A stretch of DNA of 51,643 nucleotides from sequence record NC_049852.1. One strand, written 5' to 3'. The notes beneath the pieces were generated by a model, which saw only the letters and a list, made by a program, of their open reading frames with translations, had not been told where the DNA came from and did not search any database. The translations under genes and the position numbers were made by a program. Position 1 is the stretch's first letter. Each line of letters opens with the position of its first letter. Shown in pieces: positions 407 to 49,281 of this stretch. The stretch comes from Escherichia phage egaa.

Positions 407-585
407 GCTTTATACCTCCTCGTGACTCAGTGACTGCATTATCATTTACCGCCACCTGGTGTGTCAACTGTTTTTTGTTGTTACTGGCGGTTTTCCGATG
501 TTATCTTTTCAGAACATAACAAGATTCGCGTTTTTTTTCTTATAAATCAATGTTGTTTTTGCGTGTTATCTAAAAAAGCGCGGAT

Positions 586-720
586 ACGCCCCCACCCCCA
601 TATACACACCAACCAATACACAACCACACACAACCACCAAAAATACATCAGACATCAATATGACCACATAACACACACAACAGATAGTAATTTATAGATA
701 CATATAAATAAATAATCCTT
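586..720. repeat. CA-rich, G-depleted low-complexity tract followed by AT-rich segment
   Basis: cccccaccccca...atacacaaccacacacaacc...; almost no G on plus strand; shares 13-mer atacacaaccaca with 22840-22852; approximate coordinates. Confidence 0.6.
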
Positions 721-729
721 ATTTTTTAG

Positions 730-820
730 TATGTTATATGGATTTCTCTTGTTATTTTTTGTTATGCGATTCCACGCCGGAATAACACGCATAACAGCGA
801 TAACAGAAGATAACAGTTGC
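730..820. promoter_or_regulatory. inverted iteron array: 3x TGTTAT then 4x (G)ATAACAG at 9-10 bp spacing
   Basis: tatgTTATatgg..cttgTTATttttttgTTATgcg ... aATAACAcgcATAACAGcgATAACAGaagATAACAGttg seen directly; helical-turn spacing typical of iterons or operators. Confidence 0.5.
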
Positions 821-1000
821 GCTCGCCAGGATTGCCGAAAAGGATGCGAGAGGATCGCGTTTCTCTATCCCCTCCACACAAAAAGTTAATCACTTGATTA
901 AAATTGATCAAACTCAAAGTCTCACAATCCAGGCGATCGCGAATGATTTATTCCTGTTATTCCTGATTAATGGAATAGGTGGAATAATAACCAGTAAGCA

Positions 1001-5114: not shown

Positions 5115-5154
5115 CATTTTTTGTTAAATGCGGGTAGCATTGGTGCGGTATTAT
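5109..5154 (+). promoter_or_regulatory. element variant AATAGCATTTTTTGTTAAAT + 22-nt spacer + TATTAT
   Basis: 5109-5128; hairpin gcggtattattgccgc overlaps -10. Confidence 0.55.
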
Positions 5155-5183
5155 TGCCGCATCAAAAAAAGGAGTTATCATCA

Positions 5184-6767
5184 ATGAATTTTTCGTTTGA
5201 AACCAACAAACTAACACCAAAACAAATTATCGAATTAGCTGATGCACAAGGATTGTCTCCGGTGCGCGTGTCCATTCAGGCAAACGGATACCGTCAATCG
5301 TCCAGCTTTTGGGGTGAGGTTAATGATGTTAATAACGGAAATGATCGCTACCCTGTAATTTCTCTTGGCAATGATGTTGATGTTGTTGGTAAGTTGGCGC
5401 GCAACATTGCTCGCTCAGTTCAGTTCCCTGAATCATCGGCATATATGCATTTTATCGGCTGCGTGTCTGCTGCAATGCTTGGACGCTTCACGGTTGAGTA
5501 TCACGGAACGGATCAGCCGACCGCTCTTTATGTTGTCACAAGCCAGCCTCCTTCAACTGGTAAATCTGCCGTTAACAGCCTGGCACTTGCTCCAATGGTT
5601 GCAGAAGTGGAAAGAATTAACGATCAGCGAAAGAAGGAAAGAAAAAAGATTCAGGCAAAGTTGGCAGGTCTTGCAAAAGAGATGAAAAGCGAGCGCTCCG
5701 GCGCTGATATGGAATCTCTATACCAGGAGAAAGAAGATCTGGAAGAAAAACTGGAAAAGATGTGTGACATTGTTTTCCCTGTGTCCGACACCACGCCGGA
5801 AGGACTTGCAAGAATCAACAATCGCCAGGGTAACTTTGCTGTGATTTCAGACGAGGCAACGAGTATTAACAGCCTTTTAGGTCTGACATATGCTAATAGC
5901 GAACGTAAAACCAACAGCGAACTTGTGCTGAAAGCATGGGATCATGGTCATGTTTCTATAGCTCGTGCAAACGCTGACAACAATATGAGTTTTAAAGCTC
6001 TTGGCTGTATGGCGGTGATTGCCCAGGATGAAACAATCAATGCCATCATGGATGCAGGATCGCGCGGTATCGGTGTGAGTGAGCGTTATTTGCTTGTGCG
6101 TGAGGAATCATTTTTAGGTCGTCGAAAGTTTGTTGATGATAACGGTGATTCTACTTATGAGCCTGTTGATGGAGAACTGAAAAGTCAATATTTTAAGCTG
6201 ATCCATAACATCATGAGTGAATCAAACATCCAGCTTAAGATCAGTAAATCAGCAATGCGAGTTCTTAACATGGCTCGTCAGGAGATGGAGCCGCACCTTG
6301 CTGATGGCGGAAAGTATTCGCATACAATGCTGCGCGGTGCTCTTGGCAAAATGGATAAGCAGGTGATCAGGATTGCTTCGGTTTTGCACACTATCCGCAA
6401 CTGGTTTAATCCTGGTGGATACCCTCAGAAGTCGAAAGAGATTGAAGTTGAAACCGTTCAAGAAGCACTGCTGATGTTTAGCGAGTTGAGCAAAACATAC
6501 ATTAGCGCCGCCAACGCTTCTGGCTATGCTGGTGATGATGCTGAAATGGGTAAACTAATCGAGATTATCACTCGACACGGTAAGGCTAACAAGGGGATCT
6601 TGAATGTTCGCGCCATATATGAGGCTGCACGAAAAGTTAAGCCGTTTGTTGGCCAGGCTGGCGTAATGAAGCGTATGGAAACGCAACTGCTGCCGATGCT
6701 TGAAGAAAGAAATTATATTTGTGTGATTAATGGCGTTGTTTTTGTAAATCCAACATTGCTGGGGTAA
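5184..6767 (+). CDS. P-loop NTPase-like early protein (527 aa)
   Basis: In-frame ATG (codon 22 of track ORF) with RBS aaAGGAGttatcatcaATG; Walker-A-like QPPSTGKSA; coiled-coil KKERKKIQAKLAGLAKEMK; function unknown. Confidence 0.65.
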   Translation: MNFSFETNKLTPKQIIELADAQGLSPVRVSIQANGYRQSSSFWGEVNDVNNGNDRYPVISLGNDVDVVGKLARNIARSVQFPESSAYMHFIGCVSAAMLGRFTVEYHGTDQPTALYVVTSQPPSTGKSAVNSLALAPMVAEVERINDQRKKERKKIQAKLAGLAKEMKSERSGADMESLYQEKEDLEEKLEKMCDIVFPVSDTTPEGLARINNRQGNFAVISDEATSINSLLGLTYANSERKTNSELVLKAWDHGHVSIARANADNNMSFKALGCMAVIAQDETINAIMDAGSRGIGVSERYLLVREESFLGRRKFVDDNGDSTYEPVDGELKSQYFKLIHNIMSESNIQLKISKSAMRVLNMARQEMEPHLADGGKYSHTMLRGALGKMDKQVIRIASVLHTIRNWFNPGGYPQKSKEIEVETVQEALLMFSELSKTYISAANASGYAGDDAEMGKLIEIITRHGKANKGILNVRAIYEAARKVKPFVGQAGVMKRMETQLLPMLEERNYICVINGVVFVNPTLLG

Positions 6768-7992: not shown

Positions 7993-8481
7993 TTACAGAT
8001 CCTTAATGCAATATTTAAATTCCACCGCGCGGCGGTTGCGCAGTCCTTTAGACGTTTCTTTCTTTCCTGTTTTTGGATTGGTGTATTTTGTCCATCTCCA
8101 TAACTGATCGCACGCTTCCATATAACGACCGTTATTAATCAGCTTAAGCATGGTTGAATTTCTAAAAGCTCCAGTTCCAGCATTGTATGTGAATGAATAC
8201 ATTGCTGCGCGCATTGTATCAGGAATGTCAACCTTTACACGCTTATCAACTTCATCCTTTGCGATTTTGATATGCTTCGCCAGTAGTGCATCGCACTCTC
8301 TTTGTGTGTACGTTTTGCCTTGTATTACGTCAGGGCCAGTTATTCCGGCGCAAACCGTCCATACCCCAGCAATATCTTTGTACGGCTTATGTTTTACTCC
8401 TTCTATTTCCTCCAGTAGCGGAGAAGTAAGGGCAAGAGCAACGCCAAAAGCCGCAGCGGTCACTCTTTGTTTTATACTCAT
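7993..8481 (-). CDS. endolysin, T4-lysozyme-like (GH24), probable SAR (signal-anchor-release) type
   Basis: Catalytic E-x8-D-x5-T triad ([16 protein letters not shown]); weakly hydrophobic Ala/Gly-rich N-terminus [18 protein letters not shown]. Confidence 0.8.
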
Positions 8482-8696
8482 TATTTACCTCTGATCTCAA
8501 TAGCTTTCTTAATATCACCGCATTCAAGCGCGTCACGTAGCGCCTTACTATCACGCCAGCGAAGATAAGCGCCCCACATACCAAATGCAGCCATCAAAAC
8601 GAAGCTGGCTATTGCAATAGTTGTTTGACCAGTTACCGCGCCAGTTATTGACGCGCCGCCAGTGCCGGAAGTTGCAGCGTTTAAAAAATCTTTCAT
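8481..8696 (-). CDS. holin (possibly pinholin)
   Basis: 71 aa, hydrophobic core [29 protein letters not shown], charged C-terminus; immediately upstream of endolysin; RBS cAGGAGatctaATG. Confidence 0.65.
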
Positions 8697-14096: not shown

Positions 14097-14570
14097 ATGA
14101 AAGAGCAACGAATCGCAGTATCAACAGGCAAGATTGACAAGCGCACAATTAATGGCAATAACGGAACAAGACGAGGCAAGGATAAGAAGAAGCGCAAGCG
14201 ACCGACAGGTTATTATGTTCTAAAAGATGAGGTGCGTGCCGGGCTAAAAGCGCGACTTGATATCCTTATTGAGTATTACGGAAGTGTATCAGCAATGGCA
14301 AAACGTCTTAACGTTAGCCAGCAAACTGTAAATCAGTGGCGCGTTCGCGGTATGATTTCAGCCGCTGGCGCTCAAAAGGTGCATAACGATTACAAAAAAT
14401 ATGGCTGCCAAGGCTATCGCGCGTCATTCTGCCGTCCAGATCTGCGATTTGATTCCAATGGTAAACCTCTCACAAAGAGATGTGATAAGCGTGAAATGTT
14501 GCGAGTGGTAAGAATGTCAGATTATGAACCTGGCGGATTCCTGTATAAACCTGAAAGCACTAATTGCTAA
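14097..14570 (+). CDS. HTH DNA-binding protein (XRE/Cro-like helix-turn-helix)
   Basis: SVSAMAKRLNVSQQTVNQWRVRGMIS helix-turn-helix; basic N-terminus; RBS GGAGaatgaataATG. Confidence 0.6.
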   Translation: MKEQRIAVSTGKIDKRTINGNNGTRRGKDKKKRKRPTGYYVLKDEVRAGLKARLDILIEYYGSVSAMAKRLNVSQQTVNQWRVRGMISAAGAQKVHNDYKKYGCQGYRASFCRPDLRFDSNGKPLTKRCDKREMLRVVRMSDYEPGGFLYKPESTNC

Positions 14571-21562: not shown

Positions 21563-22624
21563 TTAAATAAGATATTGCTTAAACTGGCGGCGCACCCAAT
21601 CAGGAGTATCAAGACAAACCTCCGGCTCACCGTTTGAATACGAAGGCCAAACGTCATGTTGCTGGCACATGGCAAACTGGTTAATTACGCTCATGTACTG
21701 AATGCGCCCGATCTTCAATTGCTCGCTGTTCATGCGGAAAGCCAACGGCAAATAAGGCTCTTTCTTCTCTTGCGCTAACAGTCGCACAACTATAGGTCGC
21801 TTTTCTTCTGGATACGCTTTTCTGAATAAATCACATTGCAACGCCATTTTCAAATAATAGCCGTGATTGTAAGCCAGGCGCATAAACTCAGCCGGATTCG
21901 CGCTCATTGTAGTTTTGTAGTCTGTGATCACAATGGCCTCTGTATAAATAATATCGCGGCAAATCGGCTGGCCTTTTTCATCGTAACCATCAATCAGCGT
22001 TGCGGTGACGTTCTTTGTTACGTCAACGTGATCGCATCGCACTTTGACTTTTACGCCGTTAATTTCACCGAACAACGATAATTCACGCTGTGCCGTCTTG
22101 CTATTCATGCATGCGTTATGTTCCGGTATTGATTCCAGAACCTGGCGCATTGCCACGCACGAATCGTAATCTTTAGCCTCGATTAACTGAACCCCATCGG
22201 CCCTGGCCTGACTTTCTGCGATCATGTCGATTAACCACATGACGTTAAGGTCTTCTCCGCAGTCAACCATCATTTTTATAAGTTCGGGGTAAGTCTTTCC
22301 GGTTGTACCTTTCAGGCCAAATGATTTCAGCTTTGCAGCAAGCGCCGTTTGGCTGGTTATCAGATCCTTAAAGTCTTCTGGCGCTGGCGCACGGCGATAA
22401 GTTTTTTCGAAAAGCTCCTTGCTTTCAAAGTTGGTATGCGACTGCGTACCAAAAACTAGCGCCTTGCTCTTGTCGTCACGCGGCTTGAACTTCCACGCTG
22501 CCGGGCATGTGCTGTAAATCTCTGCCAGGCTTGAACCGCTAACATAATCAGCCGTCCACGCTTCTGGATCGTGATAAAGCTCGTTGCTCATTTCTTCGCT
22601 GGTGTACGCCATAAACTTATTCAT
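21563..22624 (-). CDS. RecE/YqaJ-like PD-(D/E)XK exonuclease
   Basis: YHDPEAWTADYVSGSSL N-terminal motif and E...VITDYKT (D-x-K) core; upstream of erf-like gene. Confidence 0.65.
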   Translation of the reverse strand: MNKFMAYTSEEMSNELYHDPEAWTADYVSGSSLAEIYSTCPAAWKFKPRDDKSKALVFGTQSHTNFESKELFEKTYRRAPAPEDFKDLITSQTALAAKLKSFGLKGTTGKTYPELIKMMVDCGEDLNVMWLIDMIAESQARADGVQLIEAKDYDSCVAMRQVLESIPEHNACMNSKTAQRELSLFGEINGVKVKVRCDHVDVTKNVTATLIDGYDEKGQPICRDIIYTEAIVITDYKTTMSANPAEFMRLAYNHGYYLKMALQCDLFRKAYPEEKRPIVVRLLAQEKKEPYLPLAFRMNSEQLKIGRIQYMSVINQFAMCQQHDVWPSYSNGEPEVCLDTPDWVRRQFKQYLI

Positions 22625-22779
22625 GATTTGCCCTCGTTTGTTGGTATGCCTGCATTTTAGCTATTTAATGCGTTTAGTCAACAGTTATTTTGTTTTTTCT
22701 GTTCTAACAACGTTCCAGACGAATCGGATAACAAAATTTACATGTAAGTGATTGATAAATATCTTTGTTGTCTTTTTGT

Positions 22780-22980
22780 TCTCTTGTTCCTCCATTTGCG
22801 CCGGATATAGATATATAGACACACACAAGCACTGACACATACACAACCACATAAAAATTACCAGACACACAAAATCACACAAAACATAGATAACAAGAAA
22901 AAACAAATATAAATATATATACTGCTAACTTATTGATTTATATATATGTATATATATTTATCTGTATTTATTACGCTCTA
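22780..22980. repeat. CA-rich G-depleted tract plus (TA)n-rich segment (second copy of element at 586-720)
   Basis: acacacaagcactgacacatacacaaccacataaaaa...tatatatatgtatatatattta; shares atacacaaccaca with 616-628. Confidence 0.6.
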
Positions 22981-23049
22981 TTGTTGCTCACTTTTTGCGC
23001 TAAATTTACGCCTCCGCAGATTTGAGAACGCAGGAAAACAAAAAGAACA

Positions 23050-23093
23050 GAATAGCACTTTTTGCTAAACGACCGCCGCAAGATCGTGTATAG
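23050..23093 (+). promoter_or_regulatory. element variant AATAGCACTTTTTGCTAAAC + 22-nt spacer + TATAGT
   Basis: 57 nt upstream of lipoprotein gene ATG. Confidence 0.55.
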
Positions 23094-23125
23094 TTGCAAC
23101 CAACAACAACTAAGGAGATACCAAG

Positions 23126-23353
23126 ATGAAAAAATTAATCGCCGTTTTGATTGCAGCCGCAACCCTGACTGGTTGCGCAAATATGCCTAAGCGTGAATGC
23201 ACGGCTATTTATGAAAATAGCGGTATGCAGTATTCAGTTGCTATTTTTGGAGTAAAACGAGTTGGCGACCGCACTCTTGTTAAGGCTGGCTATCCGTTTA
23301 ATTTTCAGTGGGTAAGTATTGATAACTTTAAAAACGCTGATTGCAGTATGTAA
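23126..23353 (+). CDS. Llp/Cor-like superinfection-exclusion lipoprotein (putative receptor blocker)
   Basis: Lipoprotein signal MKKLIAVLIAAATLTGC; mature part PKRECTAIYE...VKRVGDRTLV...C resembles, from memory, T5 Llp (FhuA-blocking); single plus gene with own promoter and terminator next to tail tip genes. Confidence 0.6.
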   Translation: MKKLIAVLIAAATLTGCANMPKRECTAIYENSGMQYSVAIFGVKRVGDRTLVKAGYPFNFQWVSIDNFKNADCSM

Positions 23354-24374: not shown

Positions 24375-27300
24375 TTACCACGTACCAGTAAGCCTACCGA
24401 TCTGAACACGCAAAACGCCGTTTGCATCCCTAACGCTGATCGTTTCGTTTGTCATTTTCATGGCCCCCTCTCCAGGAGTAGAACCATAATTTTCAAACGT
24501 TCCGTTTTTATCCAGCCTCCATCCTGTTTGATTCCAAACGTAATTATTTGATTGGATGAAGTTACCGATCATGGCGTTTGTGATTGATCCGTTTTTCACT
24601 AACAGGCTGTTAATGAAAACTTGGTTATTTTCAACCACAAAAGGCAATGTATACGACCCTCCGGTCGAACTTGTCATGATAGCGAACCTGTTCGCATCAA
24701 ACAAAATCTGCGAAATAAGGCCGGATGAACCCTGCGAAAGCTGCATCACCATACCAGCACTGTACTTCTGACCGTTGTATGTCAATCCAAGTTTCATTGC
24801 GTACTGTGCGCCAACTCCATTAACGCCAGCCCATGAATCAAGTTTTTCCGTCAGCGCTGATTCAACATCTCCAAACTTCGCTGTTAATGCTGTGTCAGCA
24901 GAAACGCGCGCCTCTGTTTCGCTTGCAATCGCCTCCTCAACTCTCGTTAACTGCCCCTGAATATCATCTCCAATCTGTGATTTCAATTCCTCAATGGCTG
25001 TTGCTCTCGTTTCCGATTCTGTTGCAATTGCCTGATCAAGCCTCGTTACTTCGCTAGTTATTTCCTCGTCAAATTCAGCCTTGAGTTGCGTCATTGCGGT
25101 AACGCGCGCCTCAGTTTCATCTGCGATCAACTGTATTGATTGCCTGAATTCGGCTTTGCGTTTTCCGTTTTCCTTCCTCATAATCCTAACGTCTGCATCA
25201 TTCGCCAATGCGTTTTGAATGATGCTTTGCGCCTGATCCTTGATTTTGTTTGCGCTATCAATGGCATTCTCTTTCAGATCCTTCCCTGCTTCGGTATCAA
25301 AAATCTTATCAAGAATATTGCCTAAAACAGCCTCCACATCATCTGAAGCCATGCCTCTAACAAAATCAGTCCATCCGGAAACGTTGCCGATTCTGTCAAC
25401 ACTGCGGATTCTATACCATACAACATGACCAGCCGGAAGCGTACCGTGCCAGTATTCATATTGTGGATATGGGATCAGAGTTAACAGGCTTGAGTTTTCA
25501 GCCGTTCCATCCGGCGACTGATGAAGCTCAATGTATGCCGTGTCTCCGCTGCCTTCTGGCATCCCCCACTTAACACGAATGCCAAACACCTCATTGTCGG
25601 ATGCAGTTAAGTTAACTGGCGCGCCTGGCTCTCCTACCTTACCAGTCAGTGAAGCTGTTACAATTCTGGACCACGGCGACGTCGAACCTGAAGCAGAAAC
25701 AGATCTAACCCTTACCTGGTAGTTTCCTGAATAAATACCTTCAACCTCAATTTCTTTGTTTGCAGTCTGTGGTGTATTCAGCCAGTTGCCATCACCTTTT
25801 CGCCACTGCATTTCATACAGCGATGCGTAAGGTACTTTATCCCACGACACAACCATTGTTTCAACGCTTGCACCCTGGACAATTCGCGAGTAGGAGGATA
25901 TTTGCACATTTTCAGGCGCTGCCATTGTGTCAGGCTGGACAATTGAAGTTGGCCTGTCGTCAATGTTTACTCCATAATCAATCTCGTCGTATTTGTTCGG
26001 GTCATATTCAACAGCCGTGATGGAGTATGTAAATTCATCATCATCATCACCTTTGCCGATACTCGTTACAACGTATTGCTGCAATGCAATATCAGTGCGG
26101 TCGATTGCAAAAACCGTGTCAGGTTTAACCTCAAATCCAAACCCAATATTTAGCTCAATGGTTTTTCCGTCACCGCTTACTTTTGAGATTGTGCGCTTAA
26201 CTGGCTTCCCGTCTGGCTTGTTGATGATAATGAAATCACCTGGTCGCGCGTCAATCTTAAACGGAGCGAACACCTGCAAGCCTGAAACTTCCATCACGCG
26301 CCCTGATAGGTTTAACTTAAGGTTGCTGCTGTGAAAGTTGTCAGCAATAGCAATCACATCACCTATTGATGGGATCATGCCTTCCAGTCCAGTAGCAAAG
26401 TTTACCGTAGTGCTGCGCAAGTTAGTTTTTAGTATCCATCGACCGCGCCGATTAGCCTCACTCCTGCGTGTACATCCAATCGCTGTTATGCTTGTAGGAT
26501 TGTATCCAAATCGCAATGCTGCCTCGGTGTCGAATACGCCCTCTACGTCCTGTTGGTACATGTTTTGTTCGTCGTCGAACGTCACGTTGCACTGCGTGTA
26601 CATGCTCTTTTCGCTTGCTGTTGTGTACTGAAAATCACCATCAACAACGTTGTCATTGGTGAAGATGTACGACGGATCGCGCGGCTTATCAATGACGATT
26701 GACAAGCTCTCGCCATTCCAAAAGCTCATGCCTCGGAAGATTGAGCAAATATCACGAATAAGCTGATAAGCCTCAATCTGGCTTTGAATCACAACGTCGC
26801 ATAGATAACGCGGCTCTGTACCGCCTTTTCCATCCGGCACTTTCTGATCGCAGTATTGCGCCGCTTCGTAAAGACTCCATTTGTCAACCTGCACGCCAAG
26901 TTCTCGCTGATCTAATCCGTATCGCTGGTTTGTGATAATGTCATAAAGAACCCACGCCGGATTGTTCGACCACGCTTTCTTGAAAGTACCATCCCATGAA
27001 CCGTGATACTCTCGCATTACCGGATCGTAATTGCTCGGAACATTAATTAACTTCCATTTCTTCTTGATTGAAATGTTAGGGATCTGGTTAGGGAACAACT
27101 CACTGTCAAATTCAACGTATACAAGACCAGTCAGAGGATAACGGAATTTTGCATCAATAACCTCAGCGTAACTTTGTAGCTTAATCAGATCAGTAACGCG
27201 AGAGGATGCGCTGTCTGCCGTAACCCTTCTAACCCTAAGCAATACGCGATCATTAAATGCCGGAAGGTCAATCCTTCGGCTTCTGTCGTAACCGGAACGC

Positions 27301-28477: not shown

Positions 28478-29189
28478 ATTTTAGATCCTTATGTCTACAA
28501 ACCATTTTTGCATGTTCCTGATACCATCCAGAATACAAATCAACCCTTGACAACTTGCCAAAGGCATGATGGAGCAATTGGTTGTTGCCAAGATAAATAC
28601 CTGCATGATTCCACACTGGCGCGGAAAGCTGAAAGATAACCATATCACCAGGTTTTGGCGGCTCTCCTGTTTCAATAAATCCCTCTTTCAGATAATTTTC
28701 TTGATAAAGATTTTCACCGTGCTCAGGCTTCCACCATTCATATGGTTTCCTGAAGTCATTCAGGATAACGCCATGTTGCTTATGCCATGCCATAATAAGC
28801 CCCCAGCAATCATACGCCCCAAGCGACCACGGGCGACCAATCAGAGGACGAGATTCAGGCTCAATGATTCTCATATCACCTTCGGGCCATGACACAATAA
28901 CCCATGAAACACCCATTTCATCACACATGCATGTATCATGGGCGCTTGGAATTGTACTTGCCCCGTCTCCAGTGTGGCTATGCACAACAGCAATAAGCTC
29001 GCCACTTTCACACGCCTCAACGTATTCAATTGCGTCCATCTCAAAATGGTTTTCAGGATCATCATGCACGTTGGTTATGCGGTGGTATTTTTGCACGCGT
29101 GATTTTTGAGTGATAACACCGCACGCCTCGCGCGGGTATTCATCTTTTACGTGCTGCATTATTTCAAGTTTTATTTTTGCACTAATCAT
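28458..29189 (-). CDS. tail assembly protein (lambda gpK-like; JAMM/MPN + NlpC/P60 domains)
   Basis: JAMM motif HSHTGDGASTIPSAHD (HxHx7Sx2D); C-terminal DCWGLI...H of NlpC/P60; ATG 29189 overlaps L stop (ATGA); track start is GTG at 29192. Confidence 0.85.
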   Translation of the reverse strand: MISAKIKLEIMQHVKDEYPREACGVITQKSRVQKYHRITNVHDDPENHFEMDAIEYVEACESGELIAVVHSHTGDGASTIPSAHDTCMCDEMGVSWVIVSWPEGDMRIIEPESRPLIGRPWSLGAYDCWGLIMAWHKQHGVILNDFRKPYEWWKPEHGENLYQENYLKEGFIETGEPPKPGDMVIFQLSAPVWNHAGIYLGNNQLLHHAFGKLSRVDLYSGWYQEHAKMVCRHKDLKYDFEGN

Positions 29190-33718: not shown

Positions 33719-33737
33719 ATAGCACTTTTTGTTAAAA
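33719..33737 (+). promoter_or_regulatory. copy of conserved element (ATAGCACTTTTTGTTAAAA) in inverted orientation relative to surrounding late genes
   Basis: plus-strand copy inside minus-strand late operon, 14-32 nt upstream of the G gene start on the opposite strand. Confidence 0.4.
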
Positions 33738-37477: not shown

Positions 37478-37496
37478 GATAGCATTTTTTGTTAAA
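37478..37496 (+). promoter_or_regulatory. copy of conserved element (ATAGCATTTTTTGTTAAA) in inverted orientation, in leader region of major capsid gene
   Basis: plus-strand copy about 50 nt upstream (opposite strand) of capsid ATG. Confidence 0.4.
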
Positions 37497-48588: not shown

Positions 48589-48745
48589 TACGAACGCAGA
48601 ATACTTCAACTTCTTTATCGTTATCTGACATATGCAAAATTACTTGCTCTCTCGCGGCCTGACATCTTGATTCACCGTGGAACTCGCGAGACTCAATTGC
48701 GGCTGAATTGTAGCTTGTGATAATCACAAATAGAATCCAGGTCAT
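48584..48745 (-). CDS. small protein (53 aa) with hydrophobic N-terminus, not in ORF track
   Basis: ATG 48745 overlapping upstream stop (ATGA) with RBS GGAGGAattgaaATG; MTWILFVIITSYNSAAIESREFHGESRCQAAREQVILHMSDNDKEVEVFCVRK. Confidence 0.5.
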   Translation of the reverse strand: MTWILFVIITSYNSAAIESREFHGESRCQAAREQVILHMSDNDKEVEVFCVRK

Positions 48746-49281
48746 TTCAATTCCTCCACGCCATGCGATTGGATATGATTATGTGGCTTGTCGTATTCCG
48801 TGACCTGATAGGTTGTGATTCCCAGGCTGCGGAAGTGATTAACCACGTTCGGCGAATCATCAAAAGCGCACACGATGTTTTCTAGGCCGATAGCGCGCAA
48901 GACTTCTTCTTTGATGATCGTGTCTTTTCGGTTGTCTTCCTTGCGTCGCATGATTAACGCGTCGTACTTGATGCCGTTTTCGTTAAGCCATTTGCAGGTG
49001 TCCTCAATCACTTCATCGCTACGTCCGGTCAGGATAACGATGGCAAATCCTGACATCCACAATCCGTTAACCACTGCAACCGTGCTCTTAATCGGCGAAT
49101 CTCCAACAGCCGCTTTGTTGAACTCAGACCAGCTTTCTGTAAGGTGTAAATCTTCTGTCGGCAGCAGATGCAAGCGATGAGTCCCATCGGATAACGTGCC
49201 GTCAAGGTCAACGACAACAATCGGCTTGCTCGTGGAAAAATGGTATTTGCTTCCCCAAAGTTCAAATTCGTATTTTTTCAT
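48742..49281 (-). CDS. HAD-family phosphatase resembling the 3'-phosphatase domain of T4 polynucleotide kinase
   Basis: VVVDLDGTL (DxDGT), ILTGRSDEV, MRRKEDNRKDTIIKEEVL, AFDDSPNVVNHF align to recalled T4 Pnk phosphatase motifs; in-frame ATG at codon 6 (track start TTG). Confidence 0.7.
   Translation of the reverse strand: MKKYEFELWGSKYHFSTSKPIVVVDLDGTLSDGTHRLHLLPTEDLHLTESWSEFNKAAVGDSPIKSTVAVVNGLWMSGFAIVILTGRSDEVIEDTCKWLNENGIKYDALIMRRKEDNRKDTIIKEEVLRAIGLENIVCAFDDSPNVVNHFRSLGITTYQVTEYDKPHNHIQSHGVEELK

Follow-up and report, generated by a model that had tools for sequence, protein, structure and literature searches.

What occupies the long non-coding gap between the exonuclease VIII gene and the Cor lipoprotein gene of Escherichia phage egaa, and why does a second intergenic region of the same genome resemble it? 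The stretch analysed (NC_049852.1, 51,643 nucleotides, hereafter the window) is a near-complete, circularly permuted genome of a Hanrivervirus (Drexlerviridae, Tempevirinae, T1-like). Its exo/cor region is 99.9% identical to that of phages herni and vB_EcoS_G29-2, and the gap bears no annotation in these 99.9%-identical records. T1 belongs to the classical T phages, and the T1-like phages, which commonly contaminate laboratories and fermentations, are also candidates for phage therapy. An earlier note on this DNA had suggested that the gap and a second large intergenic region carry two copies of a functional DNA element such as paired origins, unwinding elements or attachment/recombination sites. 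The present analysis confirms that both regions hold a copy of one paralogous module, and these copies are tentatively read as paired replication sites.

Two paralogous non-coding modules in direct orientation

The gap of interest (region 2) is the 501-bp intergenic stretch 22625-23125, bounded on the left by the exonuclease VIII gene (minus strand, 21563-22624), which is the first gene of the exo-erf-ssb operon, and on the right by the cor gene (plus strand, 23126-23353). Its counterpart (region 1) is the divergent intergenic stretch 408-1082, which separates two arms of small early genes, and no other non-coding stretch of the genome is as long as these two. The description of region 2 as some 500 bp of non-coding DNA was borne out, the translations of the small open reading frames that overlap the two regions (22685-22906 and 22971-23180 on the minus strand, 461-697 on the plus strand) being low-complexity junk. 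Small open reading frames annotated here in some records were likewise rejected as not conserved.

A profile hidden Markov model (nhmmer) was made solely from 26 Tempevirinae orthologues of region 2 (22686-23048). Searched against the whole genome, it gave a sole other match, on the same strand in region 1, at 489-785 (envelope 463-809; E=2.5e-16); in phage TLS the same profile matched the TLS region 1 with E=1.6e-31. The match in the window scored 55 bits and was reached by none of 300 shuffles of each kind (within 10-, 20- and 40-nt blocks; maximum 23 bits), even though these block shuffles retain the CA-then-AT architecture and the local composition of region 1. Aligned with each other, the two modules are 55% identical across 322 columns and have their blocks in the same order. 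Since the profile match exceeds all block shuffles, composition is not the explanation of the resemblance, and the comparison confirms from the alignments that the exo/cor region and region 1 hold two paralogous modules of about 350 bp in direct orientation.

The individual features pointed out by the earlier note were recovered. The common 13-mer ATACACAACCACA occurs solely at 616-628 and 22839-22851, the only intergenic CA-rich, G-poor tracts are those at 581-696 and about 22812-22900 (the composition scan flagging 22830-22947), and (TA)n runs are present at 22913-22921, 22939-22947 and 22949-22957. Each CA tract is directly followed by one of the only two 60-mers of at least 85% A+T in the genome (679-747; 22886-22974). 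The shuffled-sequence control, on the other hand, gave a divided answer. For the CA tracts alone it was marginal, with p~0.03 for the local score against dinucleotide shuffles and a shared word of at least 13 nt in about 2.5% of shuffles, and on these tracts alone the claim of relatedness nearly fell to composition; at the level of the module the similarity lies far above the shuffles.

It is therefore scarcely credible that the modules have no specific function and that their resemblance reflects the low-complexity composition of two AT-rich intergenic regions. The marginal similarity of the CA tracts would agree with such an explanation, which is contradicted by the profile match and its block shuffles and, as described below, by block order and spacer length kept across genera, by stability minima in the same regions of five genomes and by a motif that co-varies between both regions across lineages.

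Conservation and co-variation across the family

Of 45 related IMG/VR loci, T1 and TLS included, 44 have an AT block (at least 83% A+T over 60 nt) that lies 245-312 bp upstream of the exo start. Five complete genomes from different genera and subfamilies were compared in full, namely the window, T1, TLS, AHP42 (Rogunavirinae) and Sweeny (Webervirus). In all five, the two least stable 50- and 100-bp duplex segments are AT blocks (z=4.3-5.9, against 4.0 at most for the third-ranked segment), and these minima fall in the same two intergenic regions. In the window genome, the two AT blocks have z values of 4.5-5.4, and no other 50- or 100-bp duplex is as unstable as that of module 2 (z=4.9-5.4). 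The suggestion of an unwinding element agrees with these blocks, and as a stability minimum in five genomes the AT block fits a DNA unwinding element.

Third in the genome, both in A+T content and in instability, is the segment 8799-8859 (z~3.8). As it lies in the gap upstream of the holin gene (8481-8696, minus strand), it is probably the promoter region of the lysis cassette.

Both modules of a genome share a short motif that differs from one lineage to the next. Counted in region 1 plus region 2 and compared with the genome total, the motif is GATAACA in the window (4+2 of 16), TGTTACA in T1 (2+4 of 6), TGTTCAC in TLS (2+2 of 8), GCGTATA in AHP42 (2+2 of 7) and GTAAGAT in Sweeny (4+9 of 16), while the counts of these motifs in the modules of the other lineages are essentially zero. 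A motif that is specific to the lineage and yet common to both modules implies a co-evolving, trans-acting binder; a lineage-specific, sequence-specific DNA-binding protein would thus act at both modules.

In all five lineages, module 2 lies upstream of the exo operon, whatever its right neighbour. In the window this neighbour is cor, in TLS it is a convergent tail gene with its terminator, and in Webervirus, where the module abuts the regulator-primase genes, it is the primase gene. Because the module blocks persist with a changed right-hand gene, module 2 is not simply the promoter region of cor. Block order and spacer length are kept across genera as well. Conservation in related genomes, proposed earlier as a check, was therefore found both for the module blocks and for the AT blocks, and the idea of two copies of one functional element in the two largest intergenic regions is upheld by paralogy, family-wide occurrence and co-variation within lineages.

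Anatomy of module 2

The sub-sites of module 2 (Table 1) were delimited by phylogenetic footprinting over genera, whose intergenic identity to the window goes down to 51%, together with motif statistics. Four AACA/TGTT arrays are arranged in inverted fashion, A1 and A2 on the minus strand at the left and A3 and A4 on the plus strand at the right. In A1 the sequence TTGTTTTTTCTGTT is kept (column conservation 0.80), A2 takes the form TTGTT..GTTCC..TGTTCAC in other genera, and GAAACA..AACAA..ACAAATA of A3 is nearly invariant among the orthologues. A4, which is 88% complementary to part of A2 over 23031-23046, persists in the form GTGAACA-N5-GGAACAAAAGAAAACA even when, as in TLS-type phages, a convergent tail gene stands to the right. 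The T-rich complement of A4 serves in TLS (28707-28760) at the same time as U-tract for the intrinsic terminator of tspJ, a tail gene.

The arrays are helically phased. The modules, with 1.4% of the genome, contain half (12 of 24) of the same-strand AACA/TGTT pairs spaced 9-11 bp apart (p~1e-16); with the pentamer DAACR, 12 of 31 phased pairs fall in the modules, and the observed phasing was reached in 0 of 2000 shuffles preserving local composition. A module-wide 10-bp periodicity, hinted at by rows of the Tandem Repeats Finder (TRF) output, was not significant (z 0.5-2.0), and only the local phased arrays are. Phasing of an exact pentamer common to both modules was discarded as too strict a criterion to be informative; the tetramer version works.

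The IHF core consensus has eight matches in the genome, three of which are within regions 1 and 2. Site 2 of module 2 reads TAAACTnTTGATT in Hanrivervirus, Warwickvirus and Henuseptimavirus and is degenerate in Tlsvirus. The two GC boxes have counterparts in module 1 near 575-590 and 770-784, and both hexamers of the exo promoter, P_exo, are kept across genera.

Table 1. Coordinates of the two modules, of the sub-sites of module 2 and of the adjoining elements (positions in the window).
Feature	Position	Strand	Basis or remark
Module 2, whole structured non-coding module (~360 bp)	22686-23048	+	Profile self match 22689-23048; ordered conserved blocks in 26 Tempevirinae orthologues
Module 1, same-orientation paralogue	463-830	+	Region-2 profile match, block shuffles, alignment
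Module 1, CA tract	581-696		Composition scan
Module 1, AT block	679-747		At least 85% A+T
Module 1, ATAACA x4 array	782-816		TRF and array positions
Early-arm promoter TTGACA-18-GATAAT, counterpart of P_exo	467-438	-	Adjoins module 1
P_exo, sigma-70 promoter of exo-erf-ssb operon, TTGACT-16-TAAAAT	22681-22654	-	Promoter scan, 10/12; just outside module 2
Array A1, TGTTT/TGTTC/CGTTC at 22691, 22700, 22711 (9, 11 bp apart)	22689-22715	-	Directly upstream of P_exo -35
Conserved box GGATAACAAAA (GATAACAAAA), AACAAA nearly invariant	22726-22736	+	Cross-genus footprint
IHF core consensus site 1 (TATCAATCACTTA)	22745-22757	-	Consensus match; TAAGT..TGAT block conserved
Array A2, left inverted-repeat arm (TTTGTTGTCTTTTTGTTCTCTTGTTCC)	22764-22792	-	TRF period 11; pairs with 23031-23046
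GC box G (ATTTGCGCCGGA)	22794-22805	+	Column conservation 0.83
CA tract, strand-asymmetric spacer including the 13-mer 22839-22851 (A~50%, C~29%, G~6%)	22812-22879	+	Composition scan, orthologues
Array A3, AAACA/TAACA/AAACA at 22882, 22891, 22901 (9, 10 bp apart)	22880-22906	+	Junction of CA tract and AT block
AT block, candidate DNA unwinding element, (TA)n runs 22913-22921 and 22939-22957	22886-22974		At least 85% A+T
IHF core consensus site 2 (AATCAATAAGTTA)	22926-22938	-	Within AT block
GC box G' (ATTTACGCC), second copy of box G	23004-23012	+	Alignment of copies, footprint
Array A4, right inverted-repeat arm, GAACG/AAACA/GAACA at 23026, 23036, 23045 (10, 9 bp apart)	23024-23049	+	
21-nt repeat, true copy ATAGCACTTTTTGCTAAA, upstream of cor, outside module 2	23052-23069	+	Matches ATAGCACnnnTTGnTAAA toward downstream gene

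The CA tract, on which the earlier note laid its emphasis together with the 13-mer, is present, but no other part of the module is so poorly conserved (column conservation 0.47, against 0.60-0.83 for boxes and arrays), and the arrays, the GC boxes and the AT block are more informative. Its length is 66-71 nt in 23 of the 26 orthologues, its strand-asymmetric composition stays broadly the same (A about 50%, C 17-32%, G 1-15%), and T1-group phages are without it. As length and composition are kept while column conservation is lowest, the tract behaves as a fixed-length compositional spacer rather than a sequence motif, and it was ruled out as a conserved sequence element. The sole existing annotation that touches the module falls here: the record of phage haarsle (RefSeq NC_049828.1) carries at 27022-27055 an unexplained 'repeat_region', an imperfect 17-nt tandem (AAAATYACCAGACACAC / AAAATCACACAAAACA) that maps within the CA tract at about 22854-22887 of the window.

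Such a strand-asymmetric tract could also act as RNA. A weak plus-strand promoter (22737-22765) would then yield a CA-rich, G-poor, unstructured transcript serving as a leader or translation enhancer, a non-coding RNA, a protein sponge, a Rho-loading (rut) site or the primer or R-loop RNA of an origin in the manner of T4 or T7. The promoter-like sequence TTTACA-17-TATCTT (9/12), in whose spacer IHF site 1 falls, and the common orientation of both modules are in agreement with this explanation, as is the excess of C over G on the G-poor plus strand of both copies, which over about 70-115 nt fits the composition of rut sites (C 41 and G 7 of 116 nt in module 1, C 23 and G 6 of 118 nt in module 2). 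Promoter-like matches in the region are nevertheless at chance level (3 against 3.6 expected), with poorly conserved hexamers, and no plus-strand terminator was found in the region. The Rfam 15 search gave no match at the gathering score, the best E-values in the region being 1.3-9.7, and likewise nothing at a permissive E-value. Furthermore, the presumed transcript would be made of the least conserved part of the module, which in some genera has C at 17-20% and G at 12-15% and is missing in the T1 group, and no transcriptome of a T1-like phage was found in the literature searched. Consequently, a transcribed element is considered improbable.

The 21-nt repeat next to the modules

The earlier note had also seen a degenerate copy of a promoter element at 22988-23004, and this did not hold. 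The element concerned is the 21-nt repeat of Drexlerviridae aaATAGCACnnnTTGnTAAAA, a known element to which no function has been assigned (PMC11447400). The window has 22 copies of it against 0.73 expected, one of them to the right of module 1 at 1002-1019. The sequence at 22988-23004 shares with the true repeat only a 10-mer (CACTTTTTGC, plus CTAAA), has no match to ATAGCACnnnTTGnTAAA at up to 2 mismatches and requires an indel to be aligned. The segment abuts GC box G', and only its GCTAAATTTACGCC portion is conserved in other genera. By its sequence and its conservation this segment is part of the module and not a copy of the 21-nt repeat, which is a separate, dispersed and gene-proximal element.

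The copies of the repeat (1002-1019, 23052-23069 and 20 others) are typically followed about 20 bp further on by a GATCGTGTATAGT-like sequence with a Dam site and the -10-like TATAGT, an arrangement that suggests a non-canonical promoter class with an over-long spacer. Two perfect or near-perfect copies also stand on the plus strand at 33719-33736 and 37479-37496. They occupy intergenic gaps within the minus-strand structural operon, close to the genes for major tail and major head, and are antisense to the surrounding genes. In the TLS paper, the repeats are described as oriented along transcription (PMC11447400).

Proposed replication sites or control regions

The origin of T1-like phages has not been identified, as the reannotation of TLS found no iterons anywhere (PMC11447400) and the SU57 paper gives no origin (PMC7718038). 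The modules were not described in the literature searched, which left out the original T1 and Rtp genome papers. With phased arrays, the most meltable DNA of the genome, IHF sites, divergent transcription, two copies and a lineage motif, they resemble iteron origins, and for this reason the explanation ranked first, still a tentative one, is that they are paired replication sites of the iteron-plus-unwinding-element type, one an origin and the other a second origin or cis site. The 'paired origins' of the earlier note remain a plausible suggestion and the best-fitting one, by analogy with phages SPP1 and P4.

Protein binding, unwinding and initiation at the modules are what we infer for such sites. 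A lineage-specific phage DNA-binding protein would occupy the helically phased short repeats (AACA/TGTT core in the window), IHF would bend the DNA at its consensus sites, and divergent transcription from the flanking promoters would supply negative supercoiling. The 70-90-bp AT block, as the least stable duplex of the genome, would melt, and there the P4-alpha-type primase and the DUF3987 helicase of the phage, with host Pol III, would begin synthesis. The CA tract would set the distance and phase of the left arrays and box G relative to the unwinding element, and may also provide a structure-free single strand after melting. The pair might consist of two origins, or of one origin and a second cis-required or fork-arrest site.

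Among the proteins of the window, a candidate binder is encoded at 14097-14570 (plus strand), directly upstream of the primase gene. It is a Cro-like helix-turn-helix (HTH) protein, related to Cro structures in the PDB (E=2e-5) and to a PHROG 'transcriptional regulator', and may be a replisome organiser or origin binder. Its recognition helix is the most variable part and differs between lineages, which is weakly suggestive of binding at the modules. The HTH covers residues ~54-91; the basic N-terminal region (IDKRTINGNNGTRRGKDKK.RKRP) is highly conserved, and a C-terminal CRPDL.FD.NGKP..RC motif is kept over five genera. The primase and the primase domain of P4 alpha are homologues (E=4e-13), and no similarity to the helicase/origin-binding part of alpha was detected in the proteins of the window. 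The replicative helicase is a DUF3987 protein (5121-6767, plus strand). Its C-terminal ~80 residues (~470-548) are outside Pfam coverage, match phrog_7327, a PHROG without known function, and in a low-confidence model have an H-E-H-H-E-E order that is winged-helix-like.

Several observations weigh against replication sites. No initiator was identified among the regulator and the helicase C-terminal domain examined: the boxes are absent from the regulator's own promoter region (autoregulation test), and the helicase domain, considered as a possible origin-binding winged helix like that of P4 alpha, with an unreliable model (pLDDT 47) and only 8 close homologues of this region in the database searched, gave no significant fold match. 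Outside Webervirus the modules are not beside replication genes, the usual though not obligatory place of iteron-type origins, and the modules of the window are 4-8 kb from the helicase and primase genes. The usual signatures of an origin were not seen either. GC and AT skew track the coding strand and therefore give no independent signal; DnaA boxes (TTWTNCACA) are not enriched in the genome, with 113 matches at up to 1 mismatch against 138 expected, none of them in module 2 and one in module 1; and GATC is not clustered, the single site of region 2 (23082-23085) being to the right of the module. Experimental replication data for any Drexlerviridae phage were not found in the literature searched. 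The A-tract-rich arrays could work by curvature alone, and in TLS the overlap of the terminator U-tract with the A4 complement could partly explain the conservation of A4 there. Finally, A1 and A4 occupy the positions of UP elements or activator sites of the outward promoters, and the depositors of AHP42 predict sigma-70 promoters in or beside the AT blocks.

These last two points speak at the same time for a different function, in which the modules are duplicated upstream control or architectural regions for the adjoining leftward sigma-70 promoters, P_exo and the early-arm promoter. A lineage-specific regulator, for instance the Cro-like protein, would bind the arrays, and IHF together with curved AT-rich DNA would loop or wrap the region so as to activate or shut off the promoters. 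Each module, in the same orientation, is immediately upstream of a near-consensus leftward promoter, and the position of module 2 before the exo operon in all five lineages, with any right neighbour, agrees with this function, as do the UP-element position of A1 against the -35, the contact of A4 with the 21-nt repeat upstream of cor, and the presence of a conserved Cro-like protein with a lineage-variable recognition helix. The arrays, in contrast, are off the core promoter hexamers, most of them being 100-400 bp upstream. An upstream activating region does not usually need as much as a block of 70-100 bp with 85-92% A+T in which every genome has its global stability minimum. The fixed-length G-poor spacer and the duplicated GC boxes are without an obvious role in promoter control, and the lack of boxes in the regulator's own promoter region counts against control by this protein too. 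Control regions are the main rival explanation, possible but less likely than replication sites. The two explanations are not exclusive of each other, since transcription-activated origins are known.

A site for packaging or recombination, that is, a pac-related terminase site, a recombination hotspot or an attachment site, is very improbable. The linear maps of T1 and TLS, which are anchored at the pac end, do open within the equivalent of region 1, and module 2 abuts the exo-erf-ssb recombination genes. The T1 map origin, on the other hand, corresponds to about 921-945 of the window, outside module 1, for which reason the pac site was rejected as an explanation of region 1. This map origin lies beside an inverted repeat specific to region 1 (TTATTCC x2 / GGAATA x2, 948-988), which region 2 lacks. 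A single packaging series has been described for T1 and TLS (PMC11447400), which also argues against packaging, and at 55% identity the modules are too diverged to recombine with each other. The attachment or recombination sites proposed earlier found no support, as the annotation of the near-identical genome lists no integrase and the module has no match in plasmids or in 5,426 E. coli genomes; a search for capture of the module by plasmids or by these chromosomes returned none.

The inverted repeat 948-988 is conserved in T1 (48745-48812, within ~100 bp of map position 1) and in Sweeny (~75-110); it may function in packaging, as a pac/terminase site, or as an early operator. Relative to the G29-2 genome (NC_049822.1), the window is circularly permuted and lacks ~96 nt. 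The G29-2 record begins at about position 1003 of the window, on the 21-nt repeat, and the haarsle record at about 875, within region 1; from these differing start points, Hanrivervirus deposits have been opened at various points of region 1.

Within the replication-site explanation, a more specific version can be put forward, which is unlikely in this full form. Two ancient paralogous origin modules would share the work in every Drexlerviridae genome. Theta replication would begin at module 1, which lies between the early arms next to the pac end. Module 2, always directly upstream of exo-erf-ssb, would serve as a second initiation site or, with protein bound to it, as a barrier to forks, and would thereby set off concatemer synthesis that depends on recombination, as has been proposed for SPP1 oriR. 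The fixed-length, G-poor, A/C-rich spacer would add a new component to the origin: next to the unwinding element, it would offer the P4-alpha-type primase or the DUF3987 helicase a loading pad that is strand-specific and free of structure.

Should the modules be origins, they would be the cis element that T1-type replication has been missing, and of use for the engineering of T1-like phages or phage-dependent replicons; as such they are a concrete, family-wide candidate for the start of T1 replication, with defined sub-sites and a predicted common binder. If they are control regions instead, they would define the main early regulatory switch of the family. Under either explanation, they account for the two largest non-coding regions of these genomes.

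Comparison with known systems

The operators OL and OR of phage lambda are the nearest parallel for control regions, being two diverged multi-site regions beside early promoters in a phage that encodes a Cro-like protein. Unlike the 17-bp palindromes of lambda, which overlap the promoters, the sites described here are short, phased, mostly far upstream and placed around a long AT block.

With lambda ori and other iteron origins, the modules share phased repeats beside an AT-rich, easily melted segment, and nearby transcription is likely to aid opening. Lambda ori is however a single copy inside the initiator gene O with four 18-19-bp iterons, whereas the modules have 5-7-bp repeat cores, inverted arrays on both sides and two copies. 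Lambda-like iterons were what the reannotation of TLS had sought, and none was reported (PMC11447400).

Two documented systems, satellite phage P4 and phage SPP1, have two separated copies. In P4, ori and crr are two separate cis loci with the same short repeat, the type 1 repeat bound by the alpha primase-helicase, and in the annotated record these 8-bp repeats stand in tandem with 10-11-bp spacing, in both orientations, around AT-rich DNA. The primase of the window is a homologue of the alpha primase domain, and TLS-type modules carry TGTTCAC, which covers the P4 repeat TGTTCACC in 7 of its 8 bases, four of the eight TLS genomic copies being in the modules. In contrast, the modules of the window have no copy of TGTTCAC(C), and no homologue of the helicase/origin-binding part of alpha was detected here. 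Moreover, crr is a tandem 120-bp duplication and not a full copy of ori, and the distance between the P4 loci is 4.7 kb, whereas the modules are separated by 22 kb.

An organisation similar to that of the modules is found in SPP1, a virulent pac-type siphophage of Bacillus. Its oriL and oriR both consist of direct repeats together with an unwinding element that is AT-rich, both are bound by gp38, and A+T-rich islands, including both origins, are the strongest compositional bias of its genome (PMC6316719). As in SPP1, two separated, non-identical and similarly organised elements are present, here with the same block order, and one copy is in a long intergenic region. In the model put forward for SPP1, oriR, with the phage exonuclease, annealase and single-strand-binding protein (SSB), would drive the switch from theta to sigma replication (PMC6316719); module 2 is directly upstream of exo-erf-ssb. 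The differences are equally clear. Sequence similarity is absent; the SPP1 initiator is known and oriL is inside its gene, whereas both modules are intergenic and no initiator was identified among the regulator and the helicase domain; and SPP1 uses a DnaB-type helicase with a loader, in place of the unrelated P4-alpha-type primase and DUF3987 helicase. The A/C-rich fixed-length spacer and the inverted arrays have no described counterpart in SPP1. Provided that the modules are origins, they would stand beside the dual origins of SPP1 as a Gram-negative parallel, an iteron-plus-unwinding-element origin in dual form with features of its own: arrays in inverted orientation on either side, a pair of GC boxes and a fixed-length, strand-asymmetric spacer.

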